A stretch of 32,000 nucleotides of DNA, taken from Synechococcus sp. A15-24. GTDB taxonomy: Bacteria > Cyanobacteriota > Cyanobacteriia > PCC-6307 > Cyanobiaceae. The notes below the pieces were generated by a model. It worked only from the letters and a program-made list of their open reading frames with translations. It searched no databases and was not told the origin of the DNA. Shown here in pieces: positions 1-9,180 of the stretch. A program made the translations under genes and the position numbers. The DNA lies in NCBI RefSeq assembly GCF_014280195.1, contig NZ_CP047960.1:630001-662000 (forward strand), given 5' to 3'. Position 1 is the stretch's first letter, and each line of letters starts with the position of its first letter.

Positions 1-2
1 TT

Positions 3-227
3 GTTGAATCCGAGGATCAAAAAGGATTTGTATTTGAAGGGGCAGAGCCTACATTTAGCGATTTTTTGTACATATCTTATTCAATAGGCCTTACCTATTC
101 AATGACTGATTGTGGTATTAAGGATTCTTCCGTCAGGCGTGTTGTCATTATTCACTGTCTTTCATCATTTCTGTTTGCCTCAACAGTCCTCTCTATCATA
201 TTTTCATTGGCAACTAAAGTGAGTTGA
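3..227 (+). CDS. C-terminal fragment of a DUF1345-like integral membrane protein; the 5' end lies outside the window.
   Basis: Frame 3 is open from position 3 to TGA at 225-227. It translates to VESEDQKGFVFEGAEPTFSDFLYISYSIGLTYSMTDCGIKDSSVRRVVIIHCLSSFLFASTVLSIIFSLATKVS. The pattern (DFLY-S-SIG-T, D, RR, H, SF-F plus a hydrophobic tail) matches my recollection of the DUF1345 C-terminus. It is absent from the ORF track because it has no start codon in the window. Confidence 0.5.
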   Translation, partial: VESEDQKGFVFEGAEPTFSDFLYISYSIGLTYSMTDCGIKDSSVRRVVIIHCLSSFLFASTVLSIIFSLATKVS

Positions 228-257
228 CGTGTGAGGGACCAGCCCGGCGCACGTCAA
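224..257 (+). terminator. Hairpin overlapping the stop codon of the DUF1345-like ORF; a possible weak terminator or a palindromic operator.
   Basis: There is a perfect 8-bp inverted repeat, TTGACGTG (224-231) and CACGTCAA (250-257), with an 18-nt GC-rich loop, followed by TTTGTGTGCATTT. The loop is long for a classic intrinsic terminator. Confidence 0.3.
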
Positions 258-355
258 TTTGTGTGCATTTGCAATCATTTCGGAGGGTTGCTGTAATGAG
301 CACTTCCCAAAAACCAGATCATCTTTAAAATTCTGCTGATGAACCAAATTTTGTC

Positions 356-658
356 ATGTTTGAACTCGAGTATCTCGTTGCCTTTGGCTTGGGCGCTGGG
401 CTCGTCGCACTTACTCCTGTTGTAGCAGCTGCTGCCGGGAAAGAAAGTTCCATCACGAAATCTGTTGCAGGTGCTGGCCGCGGCCTTACAAAACAAGGCC
501 TTAAGGTCGGCCTCTTCGTGGGTGGCAAGGTGTCTGGACTCTTTTCTGGCGTAAAGTCTGGCATTAATGAAGTTGGTGAAAGCTTCGGCGACATCCTTGC
601 TGAAGCCAAAGCCGACATGGCGGCACCGAAAACCAAAACCGCATCACCAAAGGCTTAA
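356..658 (+). CDS. Small membrane protein, paralog A (100 aa). It has an N-terminal TM helix, a Gly-zipper/Lys-rich middle and an acidic C-terminal helix. It is DUF5132-like by recollection only.
   Basis: ATG at 356 and TAA at 656-658. The N-terminus MFELEYLVAFGLGAGLVALTPVV is paralogous to the ORF at 2238. G-x3-G repeats occur in GLFVGGKVSGLFSGVKSG. The C-terminal motif ESFGDILAEAKAD is shared with paralog B (ESFVDLVEEAKSE). Confidence 0.75.
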   Translation: MFELEYLVAFGLGAGLVALTPVVAAAAGKESSITKSVAGAGRGLTKQGLKVGLFVGGKVSGLFSGVKSGINEVGESFGDILAEAKADMAAPKTKTASPKA

Positions 659-661
659 GGC

Positions 662-1102
662 TTGCGAGTTACAGTTAAACACCGTATTTTTGGGCGCGTA
701 AGATTTTGTTGGCAAAAAAAATTAACATTCTATGACATGCATTTCATGGAATGTTCATTTTTTTTTGTGTTTCCCACATGTCGTTTTCGACCGGTTTCGG
801 GCAATTCTGGTTGTGTGATCCATTTTGATGAAGCTGCTGATCATTCACTCTTTTCTCAGATCACTACGTGGATAGGTGATTTCTTAGCAATTGGCAATTG
901 TCAGGGACCCTTGCTTCCACCGTCCAAGACGGATTTATTGATCGATAAGGCTAAAGGTTGGACAGCTCAGTCCATGATCGTAATAGCAATACTTGGCTGG
1001 ATTCTTCCAATTCTTCCAGGAACACCTTTTTTCTTACTAGCTTGGTGGCTTGGTTGGAGACCAGTATCGTCAACTGAGCTGTCAGTTGTGACTGAACCAT
1101 AG
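662..1102 (+). CDS. HMA2/CoBaHMA-like N-terminal domain fused to a DUF454/YbaN-like two-helix membrane hairpin (146 aa).
   Basis: The only start that keeps the conserved VKHRIFGRVRF strand is TTG at 662, which is 3 nt after and in frame with the upstream TAA. The second conserved strand is TCRFRPVSGNSGCVIHF. The C-terminal ILGWILPILPGTPFFLLAWW resembles the YbaN motif LP-LPTTPF-LLA. Internal A8 (714-721) and T9 (758-766) tracts are present. Confidence 0.6.
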   Translation: MRVTVKHRIFGRVRFCWQKKLTFYDMHFMECSFFFVFPTCRFRPVSGNSGCVIHFDEAADHSLFSQITTWIGDFLAIGNCQGPLLPPSKTDLLIDKAKGWTAQSMIVIAILGWILPILPGTPFFLLAWWLGWRPVSSTELSVVTEP

Positions 1103-2143
1103 AGTAAGCCATCCTAGAGCGATTTGAGCACGCTCACATTGCTTGGAAACGAACTCTGTTGGCAATGCAATACTTCGGCAATACCCATTGAATATCAAAT
1201 GTATGCTTGCGTCGACTTGTTCGATTTTTAAATTAGCCTTTGTCACACCCGGCAAGAATATTTTTGCGCAAAGTTTCTCTGTATCCCACTCCTCGATGCG
1301 ATTGCTTGCTCTCTTCTCATCATTTGTTTTGGCTTCTTCAACTAAAGCGGGAACTGCGATTGATTTGTTGATCATTATTGGTCCCTGTCGGCATTCATTC
1401 TCGAGTTCAACATTGGCTTCAGTACTTGCCTCCTCGACTATTAGAATATGAGGTATTGCACGGTGCATTCCAGCAATGCTAAGCCGATTCCTTAGCTGCG
1501 CAGGCTTGTAGTTCTTGCCGTCAAGAATTAATGTGAAATGATGATTGCTACGATCAGAGATCGTTTTTTGTAGGAGATGTAAGCGGCTTTTCCAGGCGTC
1601 GTTAAGACGCAACTGTTGTGACGAGGGCAAGCGTAGGCGTAGTATTTTTTCGACTGTCGAGAGTGTTTGGCGCGTTTTGTCCCACCAGTTGAGCAACGGC
1701 TCAAGCAATTGGTCGATCAAGGCTGGACCCTTTTGCGCCATGCCCAGGATTTTCAGTGCATGCAATGGCGTTGGCAGGATTGCGATCAAAATTGTCCCCA
1801 TTTGAGCACTCTCCAGTGCTTCTGAGAAGAAGATTAATTTGGTTAAATCTTCGATTCCAGGTATTGGAGGGAGCTCGGTTGATTGTTTAGAGGCAATGTC
1901 GAGCAGTTGCCACCACTCACTAGCGTGAGGATTGAGCTGCTTCCAAAGCTGCTTGAGAACACTGATATGGTCGAAGTATTGAATAATACAATTGTTGCTC
2001 GCCGTGAGCTGCGCGTGATCTAAATTGAACTCACCTGAAAGGTCATACAGCTTGATTTGACAATCTCTTGTCTGGTTCAAGAAAAAATCTTGCAACCATT
2101 GATGTATCGCCGTATACCTATCTGCGCTGACCAAGAGGATCAA
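1082..2143 (-). CDS. ArsA/Get3-like protein that lacks the P-loop and carries a C-terminal HSP20-like (ArsA_HSP20-type) domain (353 aa).
   Basis: TTG start at 2143 with an in-frame TAA at 2159-2161, so no Walker A can be encoded. The N-terminus ILLVSADRYTAI aligns with the ArsA LLVSTDPAHSL region. IPGIEDL followed by ILIAILPTPLHALKIL aligns with PG-eE and D-APTGHTLRLL. The C-terminus IFLPGVTKANLKIEQVDASIHLIFNGYCRSIALP resembles the ArsA HSP20-like tail. The 3' end overlaps ORF 662..1102 by 21 nt in convergent orientation. Confidence 0.65.
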   Translation of the reverse strand: MILLVSADRYTAIHQWLQDFFLNQTRDCQIKLYDLSGEFNLDHAQLTASNNCIIQYFDHISVLKQLWKQLNPHASEWWQLLDIASKQSTELPPIPGIEDLTKLIFFSEALESAQMGTILIAILPTPLHALKILGMAQKGPALIDQLLEPLLNWWDKTRQTLSTVEKILRLRLPSSQQLRLNDAWKSRLHLLQKTISDRSNHHFTLILDGKNYKPAQLRNRLSIAGMHRAIPHILIVEEASTEANVELENECRQGPIMINKSIAVPALVEEAKTNDEKRASNRIEEWDTEKLCAKIFLPGVTKANLKIEQVDASIHLIFNGYCRSIALPTEFVSKQCERAQIALGWLTLWFSHN

Positions 2144-2237
2144 GGCATTGTCTTCGTCTTAGAACGCCATTGTATCGGGGATGTCGTCGGAGGTTTCAAG
2201 AATTTTGAGTTATTATTTCTTGAACTTCCATGACACT

Positions 2238-2579
2238 ATGTTCGAGCTAGAAACCCTTGCGGCTTTTGGCGCGGGTGCTGCCTTGATGGCATTAGCTCCG
2301 GTAGTTCGCAAGATGGGTAATCAAGAACTTGGCGATTCAATGGGGCAGGCTGGTCGCACAATGGCCAAAGGTGGTGTCAAGGTTGGTCTTGTTGCAGCAG
2401 GCGTTGCAGGGAAAGTTGCCAAGGGTGTCGCTAAGAATGCCGCTGAAGTCGCTGAATCATTTGTAGACCTGGTTGAAGAGGCTAAATCCGAACGGGTTGA
2501 GCCAACGAACATTGATGATGCTCAGCCATCTGCCGAGGCCCCTCAATCTCAGAGAGTCACCAATGTGACTGTCGAGTAA
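2238..2579 (+). CDS. Small membrane protein, paralog B (113 aa), of the same family as 356..658.
   Basis: The internal ATG at 2238 gives MFELETLAAFGAGAALMALAPVV, collinear with the paralog A N-terminus. A Gly/Ala/Lys-rich middle is followed by ESFVDLVEEAKSE. The longer track ORF from 2181 adds 19 residues with no counterpart in the paralog. Confidence 0.75.
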   Translation: MFELETLAAFGAGAALMALAPVVRKMGNQELGDSMGQAGRTMAKGGVKVGLVAAGVAGKVAKGVAKNAAEVAESFVDLVEEAKSERVEPTNIDDAQPSAEAPQSQRVTNVTVE

Positions 2580-2621
2580 GTACGACTCCAGCACCCATCC
2601 AAAACTTCTCTCGAAAACACC

Positions 2622-5156
2622 ATGGCCACATCATTTCAGATTGATTCAGGTCTTGGGATCGTTGACGGAGGCGCTTCTACTCGAGCCTCCCGAGAGTACG
2701 TTCTACCAAGATTTATTGATCGCATTCTCCACGCTTCGCCCAGAAGACTTCGATTCAGTGTGGAGTCTGGTTTTCAAGATCCAGATAACTTTACACGTCA
2801 TATTAAATCTCTTGCATCAGTTGGACAGGTTCGTTTTAACAATTTGGCTTCGTGCTATGTCGTCGTTTTTAAGACAGGTCAATCAGTTGACGCACTTCAA
2901 TGGCTCAGTGCTTTGCCGCGACGAGCGCGTGAGATACCTTTTGTGCCAGAAGTTGCGCTAATTAATGCTGTAGATTCTTCAAATGTGCAGTTAGCTGAGG
3001 AAGAAGATGAAAAATTTGTCCCAACGCGCATTATACTCCCCGTCTGCTCTCTTGGCCTGGCGATAGCAGCTGGTCCTCTGTCCCTTCCTCCCCTTGCCGT
3101 TGGTGTTTTTATTATTGGTGCAGCACATCTGAGTTTTAAACGGGCTTGGGAGGGTTTAAAGAAAGAACGCAAGATTAATGTTGATTTCCTTGATGCTTTA
3201 GCTGTATTGCTTCACAGTTTGGAAGGATTTCTTCTGGGTCCGGCCATGATGATCACCATGATTGAGGGTGGTGAGGCTGTACGGGACGCCACCCAGCGAA
3301 TTGCCAATTCATCAAATACTGATCTGGTTTCAAGTCTTCAATCTGATGTTCGTCTTCTCACGGAAGATGGCGAGAAGATTGTTTCAAGTTTTGATCTTAA
3401 TCCGGGTGATCGGGTTTCCTTTTTGCCAGGTGACAAGATACCAATCGATGGCGTCATTGAATCTGGAGAAGCTTCCCTGGACGTTGTCAAGCTTACAGGT
3501 GAATCAGTTCCCAGAATGTCTGGCCCTGGAGAGGAAATCTTAGCAGGTTTTATCGTCCTCGAGGGTCACATTATTGTGACAACTTCAGCGGTCGGTGATG
3601 ATACACGTGTGGGGCAGATCACCAAAATGATTGAGTCCGCACCTGTATTTGATACACGTGTTGGTAATTTTGCCGCAAATATTGCCAATCACTTTGTTAT
3701 CCCAACATTGGTTCTTGCGGGTGTTTCCTTGTTGCTGAGTGCCGGCAACATTGCCCAGGCAGCGTCGCTGTTGATGTTCGATCTTGGAACTGGTTTACGT
3801 GTATCCGTTCCCACGGCCATTATGGCGGCTCTCACCAGAGCTGGAAGCCAGGGTCTGCTGATTCGCAGTGGACGAGCTCTTGAACAGTTGGTTGATGTGG
3901 ATGTTGTTGTGTTTGACAAAACCGGCACTTTGACAGAAGGTCATCCATCCGTTGTCGAATTTACGATATTTGATCAAACAGGGTCCCCCATCGAAGTTGT
4001 TGCTTCTGATCGCCTCAGGCATCTTTTGCAACTTTCCACCTCCCTGGAACAAGGCCTGAATCATCCAATCGCCAAGGCGATTCGTGATTTTGCTGCAGAG
4101 CAGGATGTCGAGGTTATTGACTGTGAAAGCTGGGATTACAGAGTTGGTCGTGGTGTCGTCGCCACTGTGAACGATCAGACCATTCTTCTAGGCAATTCAA
4201 AACTACTTCACGAAGAAGGGGTTGAGATCTGGTCAGTCGATTCCAAGCCGGAACTCGACGTGGCAACCCCAATTTATCTCGCTGTTGACGGCCTACTAGT
4301 TGGTATTCACTACGCACTTGATCGTGTGCGACCTGATACTCCAGCCATGATCGCTGAGTTGCATCGCCGTGGTATCGAAGCTCACATGCTTACGGGTGAT
4401 ATTTCCTCTGTTGCCCATGCAGTTGCTGCTGACATTGGACTGCAGCGGCACGAAGTTCATTCAGATGCCTTACCTGATCAGAAAGCTGAATTAGTTCAAA
4501 AGTTTACGGCTGAAGGCAAAAAAGTTGTCTTTGTGGGTGATGGTATCAACGATTCCGCAGCTCTTGCTTATGCAGATGTCTCTGTATCGTTTGCCTCAGG
4601 TAGCGACCTTGCTCGAGAAACTGCTGACATTGTTCTCACCAATGACCAGGTATCGGATTTGATTGTTGCTCAAGACTTAGCGAGACACACCTTTGCTTTG
4701 GTGAAGCAGAACATTGGAATTGTTGGAGTCCCGAATTTATCCGCACTTTTGATCGGTACGTTTCTTCCTGTTAATCCAATTGCTGCTGTTTTCCTCAACA
4801 ACGGTTCTTGTCTCGTGGCAGCGGGTAATGCGATCCGCGCTCTTGGCTTCAAGGCTAAATCACTTCCAGAGGTTGATGCTTCATCTGATGAAGTTCTAGT
4901 TGAGCCGATTTTGTCTGAAGCCTCAGAAGTCAGACCGATAACCAAAGATTCTATGGACGCTAAAACTACCTCTCCTTCCATCCAACTTGATCTGTCTGCC
5001 CTCTCCAGTCGGGTTGGCCTGAGTTACCAGAAGATCTCTGCTCGTCGTCGTCGGAGTGATTTCATTGACTGGATATCGGCCCATGATCCTGAGGGTTATG
5101 GTTGGGAGTACAGCAAGGATCGCAACACCTTTTCCATGGTTGCTGCGAATTCATGA
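2622..5156 (+). CDS. P1B-like P-type ATPase (844 aa) with an HMA2/CoBaHMA-like N-terminal domain, no CPx-type TM motif, and a C-terminal extension of about 100 aa.
   Basis: Motifs KLTGESVP (TGE), VVFDKTGTLT, LNHPIAKAI (P1B SEHP-like), MLTGD and GDGINDSAAL are all present. The N-terminus carries SPRRLRFSV and VGQVRFNNLASCYVVVF. The segment aligned to CPC-ALGLATPTAIM reads FDLGTGLRVSVPTAIM. Confidence 0.95.
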   Translation: MATSFQIDSGLGIVDGGASTRASREYVLPRFIDRILHASPRRLRFSVESGFQDPDNFTRHIKSLASVGQVRFNNLASCYVVVFKTGQSVDALQWLSALPRRAREIPFVPEVALINAVDSSNVQLAEEEDEKFVPTRIILPVCSLGLAIAAGPLSLPPLAVGVFIIGAAHLSFKRAWEGLKKERKINVDFLDALAVLLHSLEGFLLGPAMMITMIEGGEAVRDATQRIANSSNTDLVSSLQSDVRLLTEDGEKIVSSFDLNPGDRVSFLPGDKIPIDGVIESGEASLDVVKLTGESVPRMSGPGEEILAGFIVLEGHIIVTTSAVGDDTRVGQITKMIESAPVFDTRVGNFAANIANHFVIPTLVLAGVSLLLSAGNIAQAASLLMFDLGTGLRVSVPTAIMAALTRAGSQGLLIRSGRALEQLVDVDVVVFDKTGTLTEGHPSVVEFTIFDQTGSPIEVVASDRLRHLLQLSTSLEQGLNHPIAKAIRDFAAEQDVEVIDCESWDYRVGRGVVATVNDQTILLGNSKLLHEEGVEIWSVDSKPELDVATPIYLAVDGLLVGIHYALDRVRPDTPAMIAELHRRGIEAHMLTGDISSVAHAVAADIGLQRHEVHSDALPDQKAELVQKFTAEGKKVVFVGDGINDSAALAYADVSVSFASGSDLARETADIVLTNDQVSDLIVAQDLARHTFALVKQNIGIVGVPNLSALLIGTFLPVNPIAAVFLNNGSCLVAAGNAIRALGFKAKSLPEVDASSDEVLVEPILSEASEVRPITKDSMDAKTTSPSIQLDLSALSSRVGLSYQKISARRRRSDFIDWISAHDPEGYGWEYSKDRNTFSMVAANS

Positions 5157-5677
5157 CTCCGACGCTTCATTTGCGCCACCGTACAGATCATCGTTGGCGA
5201 TTCGTTGTGTCCCAATCATCTGCTCTTGATTGGGTCCGCTTGCAAAGTGACCTCCTCAATGTTTTCCCCCAGAGCAGCTGGTTTGTTCGCATCAACCAGA
5301 GGGTTGGTTCGATTGTTATTTGCCGATTGGCCTCAGCACCACGCCTTCGCCAAGATCCGCTGACGCTGGTGTTTGGTCGTATTGCTCAGCAATTGAACCT
5401 TCAAGGATTTTCCATTTCTGAAACTCCTTTGATACCAACTGAAATCATGGACCAGACCTCACAGAACTGGAGAAACACTATTCAGTCAGCGTTTCGTTTC
5501 ATTGCTAATGCTGCTTCTGTGTCCTTATCCATATCCACGTTGCTGTTCTCTTTCGCCATTTTTATAATCGGGTTTTTAGGTCTATTCATACCCTTTTCAC
5601 CCGGGATCTGGTTGTTGATTGCCGCAACAGCTCTCTTTGACCTCGCACTTACTTTTCGTCGCCCCTTCGTCGTTTAA
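5153..5677 (+). CDS. HMA2/CoBaHMA-like domain fused to a degenerate DUF454-like membrane hairpin (174 aa); paralog of 662..1102.
   Basis: The ATG at 5153 overlaps the ATPase TGA (ATGA at 5153-5156). The N-terminus has LRHRTDHRWRFVV and SWFVRINQRVGSIVICR. The C-terminus is FIIGFLGLFIPFSPGIWLLIAATALF. The longer track start at 5102 would lie inside the ATPase coding region. Confidence 0.65.
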   Translation: MTPTLHLRHRTDHRWRFVVSQSSALDWVRLQSDLLNVFPQSSWFVRINQRVGSIVICRLASAPRLRQDPLTLVFGRIAQQLNLQGFSISETPLIPTEIMDQTSQNWRNTIQSAFRFIANAASVSLSISTLLFSFAIFIIGFLGLFIPFSPGIWLLIAATALFDLALTFRRPFVV

Positions 5678-5689
5678 TCCCTTCTGATC

Positions 5690-7780
5690 ATGCTTACAGC
5701 GGTTTGCCCATCCCAATGGATTATCCGCAGTGAGCTGGTTGATCGGGTTCGTGTATTCCATCCAGGTTTATCCTCCTCGCCTGGATTACGCCAACATTGT
5801 GGGTCATTGTTGCATCGTACCCATTGGCTTCTCAGTCACCGTATCAATGCGGTGTCCTCCACAGTGGTGATTCGATTTCACCCTCGCCAGCGAGATGAAA
5901 TCACGCTTCTTCTCGAGCGTTGCTTCATTGAACCCGTTGCTGATTCAGGCCTTGAACAGGCATTGGCTGCAGAAACACGTATTACAGACATCACCCATAG
6001 TTCTTCTTTTCAACAGGCTCTGCGCAGTGGAGTGATTTGCGGTTCTGTTCTTCTCATTGATTCCATTCTGGCCATTCCCCCGTTGGGTCTTGGCTTGGTG
6101 GCCACCATGCTGAGCTTGCCGCTGTTGCGTGAATTTATTGAACAAGTGAAAGAGCGTCTTAAAGGCGAGGTTGATTCCAGACAATTGCTACCTCCAGCTT
6201 CGGTTGAAGTTGCCCTTTCAGCGATGTTGATTGGTTCAGGTTTGGCGCGCGAATCTCTTGTTGAAGGACTATTAGGAAGCTCTACGTCAGCGCTCCAGTC
6301 GATAAGTGAAAATACTGATGGCTCCAGTTCGGAGTTTTTTGTGTTTTTGGAGCGTATTAAGACTTCAGTGATGCTGAGATGTGTAGGTACTAAATCAGAG
6401 GGTAGTAGCTTATGTCCAATCGGGGATGTTCAAGTTGGTCAGCGCTATCGATTGATTGATGAGTATCACGTTTATTTACCCTCCAGGGTGGTCCAAGGAG
6501 AGTTGGTTGTAATTAATAGCCTCAGCGATGGCTCTCCCCTCCCGTTCCATGTAATTCCGGGTGATTTTCTTGCCTTTGGCGCATTTGTGCTGTCTGGCGA
6601 CGGTATTTGTGAAGTCGTTCAGCCTTTTTCTGAGATTGCTGCTTTTCAGATTGAGGACACTCTTCTGGAAGAGGAGCCATTAAGTGTTTTCCAGCAGCGT
6701 TTGTCCTCCTTGTACGACATTCTTTTGCCGCCTGTGCAGCTTGGATTTGGAGTTTGGTCATTACTTAATGGCCTCACAGAACGTGCTATTGGTTTGCTGG
6801 CTTTCAATCCGGCTGAAGATTCTGAGCATGCCTCTTTGTCTTCTGCTGAGTCAGCTTTGGTTGACATGGCACTCAATAATGTGCACATTTCTGATTCTCG
6901 CGTTTTGGACACACTGAGCGATGTGAGTCATGTTTTAGTCAGTGTTGATGCTATGCGACATCTTGGCTCTTATTCATATGAACAGAATTTGTCAAAGGAT
7001 GCATCTGGTTTTGGTTGTGACTTGCTTCAAATTCTATGGGCTATTGTCTCACATCTTGGTGCAGACCCAAGCTCTGTCTTTTGGGGTATTTTGAGTGATG
7101 TCCTAGAGAAACACCCGACACTTCAATCTCTTGAGGTAAACCTTGGTGAATCAGATCAAGGCCTTTACCACGTTGTTCTTGAAGGCCAGCCCAAGGTTTT
7201 GATCCGTTTTGAGGAAAAGGGTGAATCCATTCATGCTCTCTTTTCTACGTCAGATGCTTCTCTCGGTGGACTCACTATTGTCTGGCGGCCATCCCCAGAG
7301 TTTGAATCGGTGATGTCCCAGCTTTGTGAACTTGGCATTGCAGTTAGTACGGTTGGTTCTCATTCTGGGAGAACTAGGGAACCACAAGATCGCAAATCTA
7401 AGTTGCATGAACTTCAAAAAAATGGATCTAAAGTTGCTTACTTAGGTGATGTTGTTAATGATATCGCTGCTATGGCGGCAGCTGATGTAGCGATTGGTTT
7501 TTCAGAGGATGAAAAGGGCTTTATCTCTAAAACCGTCTGCGACGTTATTCTAGGCGGAGACATTCATTGGCTTTCTCGTCTTTTTGTTCTTAGCCGTAAT
7601 TATGTGCAATCTAATCATTTTAACACGAATTTGATTGTTGTTTCATCAATTCTGCTTGCTGCGGCTTCTTTTGCGGCTACCTTCTCTCCCCTCCAAACAA
7701 TTGTCCTGTTTAATGCAGCCCCTGTTATTGCCGAAATCAATACATTGCGATCTCTAAATTTTTCTAGGACAAGAAGTTAA
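5690..7780 (+). CDS. Degenerate P-type ATPase paralog (696 aa) with an HMA2/CoBaHMA-like N-terminus. The catalytic motifs are eroded, so it is a probable pseudoenzyme.
   Basis: It is collinear with the neighbouring ATPase. TGES is replaced by SLSDGSPLP, DKTGT by LVSVDAMRHLG, and no TGD is recognisable. Only GDVVNDIAAMAAADVAIGF (GDxxND) survives. The N-terminus has VDRVRVFH and LLSHRINAVSSTVVIRF. The ORF is intact over 2.1 kb. Confidence 0.85.
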   Translation: MLTAVCPSQWIIRSELVDRVRVFHPGLSSSPGLRQHCGSLLHRTHWLLSHRINAVSSTVVIRFHPRQRDEITLLLERCFIEPVADSGLEQALAAETRITDITHSSSFQQALRSGVICGSVLLIDSILAIPPLGLGLVATMLSLPLLREFIEQVKERLKGEVDSRQLLPPASVEVALSAMLIGSGLARESLVEGLLGSSTSALQSISENTDGSSSEFFVFLERIKTSVMLRCVGTKSEGSSLCPIGDVQVGQRYRLIDEYHVYLPSRVVQGELVVINSLSDGSPLPFHVIPGDFLAFGAFVLSGDGICEVVQPFSEIAAFQIEDTLLEEEPLSVFQQRLSSLYDILLPPVQLGFGVWSLLNGLTERAIGLLAFNPAEDSEHASLSSAESALVDMALNNVHISDSRVLDTLSDVSHVLVSVDAMRHLGSYSYEQNLSKDASGFGCDLLQILWAIVSHLGADPSSVFWGILSDVLEKHPTLQSLEVNLGESDQGLYHVVLEGQPKVLIRFEEKGESIHALFSTSDASLGGLTIVWRPSPEFESVMSQLCELGIAVSTVGSHSGRTREPQDRKSKLHELQKNGSKVAYLGDVVNDIAAMAAADVAIGFSEDEKGFISKTVCDVILGGDIHWLSRLFVLSRNYVQSNHFNTNLIVVSSILLAAASFAATFSPLQTIVLFNAAPVIAEINTLRSLNFSRTRS

Positions 7781-7822
7781 CTCATTAGCTTTATTTAGGT
7801 TATAGATTTTTGCTGAATGACG

Positions 7823-8431
7823 CTAATGCGCCAATATATTTATTCCGAGAGCTATAAACAAAGCACCACTTATGTACAAGAGTCGTTTTTGGCATAGGCG
7901 TTTTTTTAAGCATTTCCCTGACGATACCGCCATAATCGCAAGAAGAAAGTTAGCCGCTACTGCTCCAGAAAAAATGCTTTCTGCAGATATGTTTGGCCCA
8001 GCGGCTAATGCAAGAAGCGCAAGTTGCGTGCGGTCACCGAACTCAGCTAAAAATGTTGTCGCAAACGAGTTGCGAATCACCTCGTTTGCGGGCATTGCTA
8101 GTTCTACTGATTCAAATGTTTTTTTGGTTCCTTCTTCGTTGGTGGCAACATGAAGGCTTGATTTCATTTTTCTTGCTTCGAGAAATGCGTTGGCTCCGAA
8201 TAGGAGAAATGCCACTCCTGAGAAGATTTGAATGGTATCGATGGATATGACCGATTTCATCCATACCCCGGCTGTAATCCAAAGTCCTGCGCCGATTGTT
8301 AGGGCCGAAACGCTTCCAGTGAAAACCCAACGAGCTTTATGCCTTGCCGCGAGAACAAGAGTGGTTAAGAATGATTTATCTCCTACGCCCGCGATGGCGA
8401 CCGTGGCGAATGCTGTAGTAAAGCCAGCCAC
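7823..8431 (-). CDS. UPF0016/GDT1-family (TMEM165/Mnx-type) cation transporter (202 aa).
   Basis: It has a two-repeat membrane architecture. The second signature is canonical (EFGDRTQ). The first reads GVGDKSF, with Gly where Glu is expected. The start is GTG at 8431, with an upstream in-frame stop at 8456-8458. Confidence 0.85.
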   Translation of the reverse strand: MAGFTTAFATVAIAGVGDKSFLTTLVLAARHKARWVFTGSVSALTIGAGLWITAGVWMKSVISIDTIQIFSGVAFLLFGANAFLEARKMKSSLHVATNEEGTKKTFESVELAMPANEVIRNSFATTFLAEFGDRTQLALLALAAGPNISAESIFSGAVAANFLLAIMAVSSGKCLKKRLCQKRLLYISGALFIALGINILAH

Positions 8432-8508
8432 ATACCTAGGGAAATTTCTGACAAGCTATCGGAGATGTCTTTTCCCTGTTGCTCGCGTCAGTGCATGTGG
8501 ATATGGCT

Positions 8509-9036
8509 TCAGCGATCCGTGGGTTCCTTGACAAGCCAGGCTGTGCGCTGTCCGGCTCGACTGATTCGTTCAAACTCTAATCCCATTCTGTGAAAACCCC
8601 GTTGCCCACTGGATAATTGCTCCGTCTGCGGCAAGCGCTTGATCTCGAGAAGTGAGCAGATTTCGTGACCTGTGAGTTCGATTTGCGTGGTTTTGAGCAG
8701 ATCTAGAACTTCAATCCTTTCTCGTAATAAACGTAGCTTGGAATACTTTCTGACATCGTCTTCGATTGGCGGCTCTGAGCTGGTTTCGGTTGTTGCCAGT
8801 TCGTGGTGTGTGAAGTTGGTTTCCACTGTGACCACTTCCGCGACCAGGGGCTCTTTCGGATTGGCCCGTCCCAGGTGGTCATAGATGCGTCCCGTTTCTT
8901 CTTGTCGAATCCAGGTGCGCATGCCTCGTCGGATCGGCTCAATACCGAGTTCACGCATCACCAGCAGTAGGTCAACCCGCGACAGACCGAGGTCAGACTC
9001 CAGACTGCCAAGACTGACCGCTTGTTGTGAGCTCAT
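8509..9036 (-). CDS. Hypothetical protein (175 aa), possibly HTH-like at the N-terminus; it sits at the compositional boundary.
   Basis: ATG at 9036 and TGA at 8509-8511, with intermediate GC. The N-terminus LGSLESDLGLSRVDLLLVMRELGIEPIRRGMRTWI looks like a small DNA-binding helix bundle. No family was recognised. Confidence 0.55.
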   Translation of the reverse strand: MSSQQAVSLGSLESDLGLSRVDLLLVMRELGIEPIRRGMRTWIRQEETGRIYDHLGRANPKEPLVAEVVTVETNFTHHELATTETSSEPPIEDDVRKYSKLRLLRERIEVLDLLKTTQIELTGHEICSLLEIKRLPQTEQLSSGQRGFHRMGLEFERISRAGQRTAWLVKEPTDR

Positions 9037-9101
9037 GCTGGGAACTTCTACAAGACCTTTTTACTCGTTGTTCACGTCCAGTTGTCAATTGTCTTCGGCT
9101 C

Positions 9102-9138
9102 AAAAAAACGTGCGTGAAGCCATTTCACTCCACACACG
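9102..9138 (-). terminator. Intrinsic terminator downstream of cysK.
   Basis: The minus-strand RNA reads CGUG-ugugga-GUGAA-auggc-UUCAC-g-CACG followed by U7 (plus-strand A-run at 9102-9108). It lies 43 nt after the cysK stop. Confidence 0.55.
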
Positions 9139-9180
9139 CGTTGATCGCTCTAGTCGATTTGAGGCTCCAGTGATCCTGAG

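Follow-up and report, generated by a model that had tools for sequence, protein, structure and literature searches.

The window analysed in this work, a stretch of 32,000 nucleotides (nt) from Synechococcus sp. A15-24, carries nine genes, designated A to I (Table 1), that we interpret as a membrane cassette conserved among picocyanobacteria, in the form that marine Synechococcus has. With about even confidence, this cassette is considered to move a hard divalent cation, along with protons and inorganic carbon, at a specialised site in the membrane. The cation is most likely Ca2+, perhaps with Sr/Ba or Mn. The same gene set surrounds a calcyanin-like gene in estuarine and probably in freshwater relatives. 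The product of G is 100% identical to a protein of A15-24, the other products have exact matches in that genome, and nearly all of them are labelled 'hypothetical' in its annotation. All coordinates given without a locus name are positions within the window; the loci used for comparison are denoted by L numbers.

The arrangement of the nine genes, in both order and orientation, is constant across three marine lineages that are divergent, the complete genome of CC9605, and the CB0101-type loci. The identities between cassette versions go down to 28-30%, and every reading frame is intact. The marine versions were identified in A15-24, CC9605, CC9616, MIT S1220, one single-cell genome, and many Tara contigs. 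Exact copies, or copies of at least 90% identity, occur on hundreds of contigs from marine metagenomes. A distant version, which is 28-64% identical by protein, was identified in Synechococcus CB0101 and in picocyanobacterial contigs with a guanine-plus-cytosine (GC) content of 65%, where it shows no GC contrast to its flanks. A preliminary description of this DNA, made from the sequence itself, had read these genes as parts of one system, and the neighbourhoods in other genomes and metagenomes do keep the genes together, as a conserved and co-inherited cassette and not as a grouping by chance. The sequence features that it listed are also real, namely the low GC, the paralogy of A and D, the ATGA overlap of the E stop and the F start at 5153-5156, and the other gaps of 3, 12, and 42 nt. 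The span that it assigned to the cassette (356-7780) is correct in holding a cassette but is too short at both ends, where the DUF1345 gene, the GDT1 gene (H), and gene I also belong.

Table 1. Positions of the cassette genes and of the other features identified in the window.
Feature	Position	Strand	Basis
A: DUF5132 small membrane protein, 100 amino acids (aa), N-terminal hydrophobic segment and Gly/Ala-rich region	356..658	+	Pfam DUF5132
B: CoBaHMA-like domain (residues 1-77) and C-terminal DUF454-type helical hairpin (residues 89-129)	662..1102	+	AlphaFold model, conservation
C: Get3d/ArsA-fold protein without Walker A, C-terminal alpha-crystallin (ArsA_HSP20) domain; overlaps B at the 3' ends	1082..2143	-	Pfam, PDB profile matches
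D: paralogue of A, 113 aa	2238..2579	+	44% identity to A
E: CoBaHMA-like domain fused to catalytically complete P1B-like ATPase	2622..5156	+	TIGR01525, motifs
F: CoBaHMA-like domain and hairpin, 174 aa, paralogue of B	5153..5677	+	hhalign to B family
G: CoBaHMA-like domain fused to pseudo-P-type ATPase	5690..7780	+	alignment to E family, model
H: GDT1/UPF0016 cation/H+ antiporter, first E-x-G-D-K-T motif degenerate	7823..8431	-	Pfam GDT1
I: conserved soluble protein, 175 aa, last cassette gene	8509..9036	-	orthologues in every cassette version
DUF1345 (Pfam BPSS1818) membrane-protein gene, 3' end, cut by window start	3..227	+	tblastn to L005 homologue
Low-GC genomic island with all visible cassette genes inside, extending upstream beyond the window	1..9100		GC contrast; CC9605 synteny
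Terminator-like hairpin past cysK, island edge	9108..9139	-	13-base-pair stem followed by T run; weak

Protein E scored 448.7 bits with the generic P1B model TIGR01525 (cutoff 346.25) but stayed below the cutoffs of the subfamily models (318 versus 397 for the Cu model and 311 versus 313.5 for the Cd model). It shares sequence, domain plan, and all catalytic motifs with the P1B-type ATPases CopA, ZntA, CadA, and HMA4, and its best solved relatives were matched with an E-value of 4e-62. The motifs TGES (3495-3506), DKTGT (3915-3929), and GDGIND (4536-4553) are present together with HP and TGD. Protein E differs from these pumps at the membrane site. Transmembrane helix 4 (TM4) has DLGTG (3780-3794) at the usual place of CPC, and CPC corresponds to LGT in the alignment to HMA4 and the solved Cu pumps. 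TM6 has NNGS (4797-4808), and the YN ligands of TM5 and the MxxSS ligands of TM6 are absent. Every Cys/His/Met ligand of the P1B-1 to P1B-4 sites is missing, and the N-terminal domain is CoBaHMA-like and has no CxxC. Both the catalytic motifs and the transmembrane site motifs are kept clade-wide, including in the Gloeothece and Nostoc homologues. Judged by its sequence, ATPase E lies outside the characterised Cu and Zn/Cd subfamilies, as the reading of the preliminary description required. The gene calls of CB0101 give two genes for the E orthologue (765 and 54 aa; L020:11996-14454), which may reflect a frameshift or an annotation split.

The same site bears on the analogy with ferrosomes, and with Fe, that had been drawn earlier. 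A ferrosome-like iron-storage organelle system resembles the cassette in a general way only, through an atypical P1B ATPase that is accompanied by small membrane proteins. FezB, the pump of ferrosomes, is a member of a subgroup in which the Cys of TM4 is retained, whereas the TM4 site of E is DLGTG and has no Cys. Neither a P1B-6-type motif nor a fez-like or other iron-related gene was found; the genes nearby encode a carbonic anhydrase, cation/H+ exchangers, and the calcyanin-like protein. The analogy was therefore abandoned, and a system of this kind is regarded as extremely improbable.

The second ATPase-like protein, G, is related to E along its whole length. The profiles of the E and G families align end to end, including the N-termini, with a probability of 99.9% (E-value 4.5e-32, 672 columns). 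The AlphaFold model of G, with a predicted local distance difference test (pLDDT) score of 68.7, matches the P1B structures of ATP7B, ZntA, and CopA (E-values 1e-24 to 1e-19), which points to the same fold. However, protein G differs from these pumps in its catalytic motifs. TGES is replaced by SDGS (6524-6535), DKTGT is replaced by SVDAM (6941-6955), and TGD is lost; the protein also has GDVVND and, in TM4, FNPAED. The catalytic motifs are absent from all 13 of the 13 divergent representatives of the G family. Among 1.84 billion representative proteins, the G family consists of about 13 full-length clusters that scored 298-1129 bits and are followed by a gap, the ordinary P-type ATPases scoring at most 83 bits. 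On these alignments, G is a long-conserved pseudo-ATPase paralogue of E, and the pair of one active and one inactive ATPase that the preliminary description had recognised is retained here. The RefSeq start of G (656 aa) cuts the first strands of the N-terminal module (window 5690-5809). Upstream of that start, W10, R13, R19, R21, and H24 are conserved in 22 homologues.

The N-terminal modules of B, E, F, and G do not exhibit significant similarity in pairwise BLAST. The comparison of family profiles related E to F with 93% probability (E-value 3e-7), E to B with 91%, and F to B with 79%. The AlphaFold models of B (pLDDT 81.6) and G exhibit an identical order of elements (b0-b1-a1-b2-b3-a2), and no b4 strand is predicted in either of them. 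Together with the end-to-end alignment of E and G, these comparisons uphold the earlier claim that one module is common to the four proteins. The identity that was claimed for this module, HMA2/CoBaHMA, is supported by the profiles, the signature, and the homologues but not by the curated Pfam threshold, which no window protein reached. The basic signature consists of His in b0 and R-x-R in b1, and CxxC is absent from the module segments. It takes the form LH-x(3)-RR-x-RF in E and H-x(4)-RWR-F/Y in F; in G the R-x-R is present and the His is replaced by Ser. The homologues of E from Gloeothece and Nostoc (39-41% identical) pass Pfam HMA_2 with 33.4 and 51.5 bits over a region that aligns to residues 34-110 of E. 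HMA_2 (PF19991, gathering score 30 bits) did not match B, E, or F at an E-value of 1 or lower. The best HMA_2 score among the window proteins is that of G and is weak (15.6 bits, E-value 0.016).

The assignment to HMA_2 was made through profile-profile comparison, models, and transitive homology because the direct Pfam and NCBIfam scans gave only the weak match of G. The modules are accordingly described as CoBaHMA-like, that is, as divergent members that are recognised by transitive homology and signature in sequences and models rather than by the curated threshold. They resemble the CoBaHMA/HMA_2 family in the order of elements, the His of b0, the R-x-R of b1, the absence of CxxC, and the fusion to membrane proteins. 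They differ from it in that all four copies score below the Pfam threshold and that b4 is not predicted in the two models. Fusions of CoBaHMA domains to membrane transport proteins have reportedly been described by Gaschignard and colleagues.

In the model of B, the CoBaHMA-like domain is followed by two helices. H7, R12, R14, and the hairpin LPILPGTPFF...WLGWRP are invariant across 38 homologues of B. The families of F and B align with 93.7% probability in hhalign (E-value 2e-7, 128 columns), and this alignment covers both the domain and the hairpin. The hairpins of both proteins have G-x-x-(I/L)-P-x-x-P-G in common, and F has a hydrophobic stretch at residues 120-168. A YbaN/DUF454-like hairpin had been proposed for these two proteins. 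The hairpin itself stands in both, but the gathering score of DUF454 (PF04304) was not reached by B (27.4 versus 35.1 bits; E-value 3.7e-6), and the match consists of 30 residues at profile positions 10-39 of 115, which is the hairpin part only; a match limited to the hairpin has also been reported for the Microcystis protein. The 3' ends of genes B and C overlap in every lineage; the overlap measures 21 nt in the window (1082-1102), 48 nt in L011 (L011:10412-10459), and 148 nt in L005 (L005:5339-5486). This conserved convergent overlap might couple the expression of B and C. Gene B is absent from the gene calls of the CC9605 gene set.

Small protein A passes Pfam DUF5132 (PF17195) with 28.1 bits (cutoff 25). 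Its hydrophobic segment spans residues 1-28, and Gly and Ala make up 32% of its residues. Proteins A and D are 44% identical (BLASTP E-value 8e-13), start with MFELE, and each have a single N-terminal hydrophobic segment and about 30% Gly+Ala. The Pfam scan gave no direct DUF5132 match for D, and the L011 orthologue of D matches DUF5132 weakly. The orthologues of A are 64-70% identical and occur in all related loci, and those of D are 54-88% identical.

Protein C passes Pfam ArsA_HSP20 with 24.4 bits (cutoff 22.5), and its ArsA_ATPase score of 18.4 bits is under the cutoff of 24.3. The best solved relatives in the profile search of PDB are Get3d of Nostoc (All4481; 3igf/8egk, E-value 3.3e-7) and At1g26090 (8elf). 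As far as can be predicted from these matches, C resembles Get3d in its Get3/ArsA fold, in its C-terminal alpha-crystallin domain, and in belonging to a family that is restricted to photosynthetic lineages. Get3d keeps the P-loop, hydrolyses ATP, and binds tail-anchored proteins (Barlow et al., 2023; PMC10248533). In contrast, the P-loop position of C is occupied by S-A-D-R-Y (2108-2128) in six of six lineages, with S6 and D8 invariant, and no longer reading frame of C is possible upstream of 2143. Protein C also scored 20 with the NCBIfam model NosAFP, far under the cutoff of 325. The matches identify C as a P-loop-less relative of Get3d, as expected from the ArsA/Get3-like gene without a Walker A motif that had first been noticed on the opposite strand.

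Protein H matches Pfam GDT1 with 111 bits over both repeats. The first motif reads A-G-V-G-D-K-S, with the Glu lost, in all marine versions, and the second motif is canonical. An orthologue of H occurs at the matching position in all marine cassette versions. An unlinked GDT1 protein of L011 has two canonical motifs. The orthologues of protein I are 38-81% identical and occupy the same position in every cassette version; the searches of Pfam, NCBIfam, and PDB gave no match for it. The conserved N-terminal segment of I (LGLSRVDLLL..REL.I.P...GMRT) resembles a helix-turn-helix, so I could be the regulator of the cassette, which is a guess.

Upstream of the cassette, the syntenic loci, including that of complete CC9605, carry genes for a DUF1345 protein, a CPA-type cation/H+ antiporter, and a beta-carbonic anhydrase. 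Genes of DUF1345 (PF07077) lie beside the cassette in all related loci, and the product of the truncated gene at the window start is 75% identical over 71 residues to the L005 homologue (tblastn E-value 1e-39). The beta-carbonic anhydrase that adjoins the cassette has intact C-x-D-x-R and H-x-x-C motifs, which provide the zinc ligands. The CPA-type antiporter, GDT1, and the beta-carbonic anhydrase would also fit an adaptation to pH, salinity, or inorganic carbon, in which antiporters, carbonic anhydrase, and pump tune the pH and bicarbonate of the cytoplasm or periplasm without any storage. The range of the cassette, from open-ocean strains to estuarine CB0101 and the non-marine-looking 65%-GC contigs, agrees with such a role. 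However, such a role gives no reason for the two conserved pseudo-enzymes, the calcyanin-like neighbour, the hairpin proteins, or the presence of four CoBaHMA-like domains, and we consider it quite unlikely.

Calcyanin, in which an N-terminal domain precedes a (GlyZip)3 domain, marks intracellular carbonate formation in cyanobacteria. RS9917, a marine strain, possesses ccyA and produces carbonate granules. In CB0101, L011-L014, and L016, a calcyanin-like gene of 294-317 aa lies inside the cassette, between the carbonic anhydrase gene and the gene of the first small protein; in CB0101 it occupies L020:8687-9571 on the minus strand. Its product consists of a CoBaHMA-like N-terminus (LMHATPQRLRL...) and three Gly-rich repeats. 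The profile comparison of this N-terminus with those of B, E, and F gave 89-92%. The second repeat matches the PdsO model, and a PdsO match has been published for the second GlyZip (GlyZip2) of calcyanins (PMC8890360). A Na_Ca_ex/CAX gene abuts the calcyanin-like gene in L016, and ccyA adjoins a CAX-type exchanger in Microcystis and Chlorogloeopsis. The ccyA gene of Microcystis is flanked by genes for DUF5132 and CoBaHMA-DUF454 proteins, and these genes show co-expression with ccyA (bioRxiv 10.1101/2024.07.07.602159). On the megaplasmid of Fischerella NIES-4106, two unspecified cation ATPases and a carbonic anhydrase are encoded near ccyA. The connection with calcyanin is stronger than the preliminary description had stated.

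The cassette resembles the reported ccyA neighbourhood (Benzerara et al., 2022, PMC8890360; Bruley et al., bioRxiv 10.1101/2024.07.07.602159) in bringing together DUF5132 proteins, CoBaHMA domains with a DUF454-type hairpin, further CoBaHMA proteins, and cation/H+ exchangers, and in the calcyanin-like gene of the orthologous cassette of CB0101-type relatives. It differs from that neighbourhood in that the window version has neither a calcyanin-like gene nor CAX. The ATPase/pseudo-ATPase pair, the P-loop-less Get3d-like gene, GDT1, and protein I are not described there in the accessible papers, with Fischerella NIES-4106 as a partial exception. The novelty that had been claimed for the system thus holds, as far as the accessible literature shows, for the ATPase pair and the Get3d-like gene but not for DUF5132 and CoBaHMA-DUF454 genes beside ccyA, since that part of the neighbourhood is published for Microcystis. 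No description of the full cassette, the pseudo-ATPase, the P-loop-less Get3d-like gene, or the calcyanin-less marine form was found in the accessible literature, which did not include Gaschignard et al. (2024).

Related genes were also identified on plasmids of Gloeothece verrucosa PCC 7822 and Nostoc flagelliforme. The E-like ATPases of these plasmids are 39-41% identical to E and exhibit D-x-G-T-G, NNGS, and an HMA_2 N-terminus. DUF1345, DUF5132, HMA2-domain, DUF454, and DUF1269 genes adjoin the ATPase gene. In contrast to the cassette, no pseudo-ATPase, Get3d-like gene, GDT1, or carbonic anhydrase was found in the stretches examined. In Gloeothece PCC 7822 (L018:12416-19930), the ATPase gene stands beside genes for DUF1345 and DUF5132 proteins, a 522-aa HMA2-domain protein, a lipid kinase, and a DUF1269 (Gly-zipper) protein, and a huge hemolysin-type Ca-binding protein is encoded nearby. 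The tblastn searches of plasmids with the calcyanin-like protein and with B gave no match.

Several observations weigh against a cassette that handles Ca2+ and inorganic carbon. No calcyanin-like gene was found in the window, CC9605, L001, or L010, and CAX is also absent from the window version. No carbonate granules have been reported in published work on A15-24, CC9605, or CC9616. The CB0101-type neighbour is called calcyanin-like from its architecture, its PdsO match, and its context only, and the homology search with this protein reached relatives of at least 45% identity and did not reach CcyA of RS9917. The E-like ATPase loci of Gloeothece and Nostoc do not have a calcyanin gene nearby, which indicates that the module is broader than carbonate biomineralisation. 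Foldseek gave no significant match of the B model in PDB. The choice of the ion is itself a guess from ligand chemistry and neighbouring genes only. Lastly, the cyanobacterial GDT1 proteins are known mainly for Mn2+ export.

This last point agrees with a homeostasis island for Mn or divalent metals in general, in which Mn2+ or another transition metal is exported by E with H (GDT1/Mnx-like) as a backup, while the other proteins are accessory and nothing is linked to carbonate or a compartment. The overall similarity of E is highest to heavy-metal P1B pumps, and the island is horizontally mobile like many metal-resistance islands. However, E does not have the thiol, imidazole, or thioether ligands of the P1B-1 to P1B-4 pumps, and the family and structure searches detected no regulator of the ArsR, MerR, or CsoR type. 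The fixed association with the beta-carbonic anhydrase and the cation/H+ antiporters, and with the calcyanin-like gene and CAX of the relatives, would also be left unexplained. We consider a metal homeostasis island possible, if unlikely; it and the adaptation to pH or inorganic carbon are the main rival readings.

The absence of a calcyanin-like gene, the two catalytically dead members, and the degenerate first GDT1 motif might instead indicate the decaying remnant of a carbonate-granule cluster that lost calcyanin and no longer works. The dead motifs are, however, ancient and family-wide, and cassettes with the calcyanin-like gene have them as well. No reading frame is disrupted in lineages that are only 36-77% identical, the hairpin of B does not vary among its homologues, and copies are abundant in ocean metagenomes. 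Given this family-wide conservation, a remnant is very unlikely.

We therefore return to the cassette as a working transport system for a hard divalent cation, protons, and inorganic carbon. Protein E would be the ATP-driven pump of the cation; Asp, Thr, Asn, and Ser stand at the places where the Cu and Zn pumps have thiol ligands, which would suit a hard cation. Protein G cannot be phosphorylated and keeps the P-type fold and a polar TM4, so it is probably a non-catalytic partner or scaffold of E. Protein H, the upstream CPA-type antiporter, and the beta-carbonic anhydrase would exchange protons and supply bicarbonate or carbonate. Proteins B and F would be anchored by their C-terminal hairpins and would display their basic CoBaHMA-like domains, which could dock on anionic lipids or on the CoBaHMA domain of the pump itself. 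The single-pass, Gly/Ala-rich proteins A and D may oligomerise in the membrane. Protein C has no P-loop through which ATP could be bound and may act as a holdase or delivery factor for B and F with their C-terminal anchors; this role without ATP is proposed by analogy with the binding of tail-anchored proteins by Get3d. The earlier proposals that the pseudo-ATPase may be a partner, that the ArsA-like protein may be a holdase for the hairpin proteins, and that the CoBaHMA domains may bind lipids are plausible hypotheses.

A bolder proposal, which we put forward tentatively and consider unlikely as a whole, is that the cassette is the core loader or organiser of an intracellular cation-carbonate store to which calcyanin is optional. 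Proteins E and G would then be the first P-type pump to work with a dedicated dead paralogue, and the CoBaHMA proteins with hairpin anchors would have in C a Get3-type chaperone that needs no nucleotide. Under this proposal, abundant Synechococcus of the open ocean, such as CC9605 and A15-24, which we place in clades II and III, would store alkaline-earth cations inside the cell by a route that does not depend on calcyanin. If Ca, Sr, or Ba were stored by the marine version, this would matter for how some of the most abundant phototrophs cycle carbon and alkaline-earth elements.

For intracellular calcium carbonate formation in cyanobacteria, the genes named so far are only one marker (ccyA) and a small number of candidate neighbours. 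The cassette provides a testable list of parts that travels with the calcyanin-like gene in picocyanobacteria: a pump of hard-cation type, its dead paralogue, anchored CoBaHMA proteins, a dead Get3d-like protein, proton exchangers, and a carbonic anhydrase. The calcyanin-less cassette is present in cultured and sequenced ocean strains (CC9605, CC9616, and A15-24), which allows a clean comparison of both versions. Regardless of its function, the cassette holds two ancient pseudo-enzymes under selection in one operon-like unit, which is relevant to the biology of P-type ATPases and Get3.

The cassette lies in a genomic island with a GC content of 46.7% (bases 1-9100), compared to 61.9% for bases 9101-31000. 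The complete genome of CC9605 has the island at the same queA/cysK site as A15-24, and L001 has another downstream flank (cobO). The marine cassette versions exhibit 39-48% GC and their flanks 60-65% GC (L001, L005, L010, and L021), and this lower GC of the cassette suggests horizontal spread. The scans of the window for promoters and terminators gave no more sites than shuffled sequences, so the hairpin at the island edge is a weak call.

Phage carriage of the cassette was considered and dropped, with no copy found on viral contigs. Bins labelled Rhodopirellula and Verrucomicrobiales have near-identical cassette genes on short contigs (L009; P0151, P0405, and P0420), and these copies are most likely binning contamination by Synechococcus DNA. 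The scan of genome contigs with the G profile identified one Synechococcus single-cell genome and one mis-binned contig; it says little on the wider distribution because very specific peptide patterns were used.

The region from 9181 to 31904 is ordinary core genome that consists of cysK, two Cys/Met pyridoxal-phosphate enzymes, psbC, psbD, an NmrA-like protein, NTRC, a helicase, pntA/pntB, and a fatty-acid desaturase. The GC content goes down to 52% in the last kilobase of the window.

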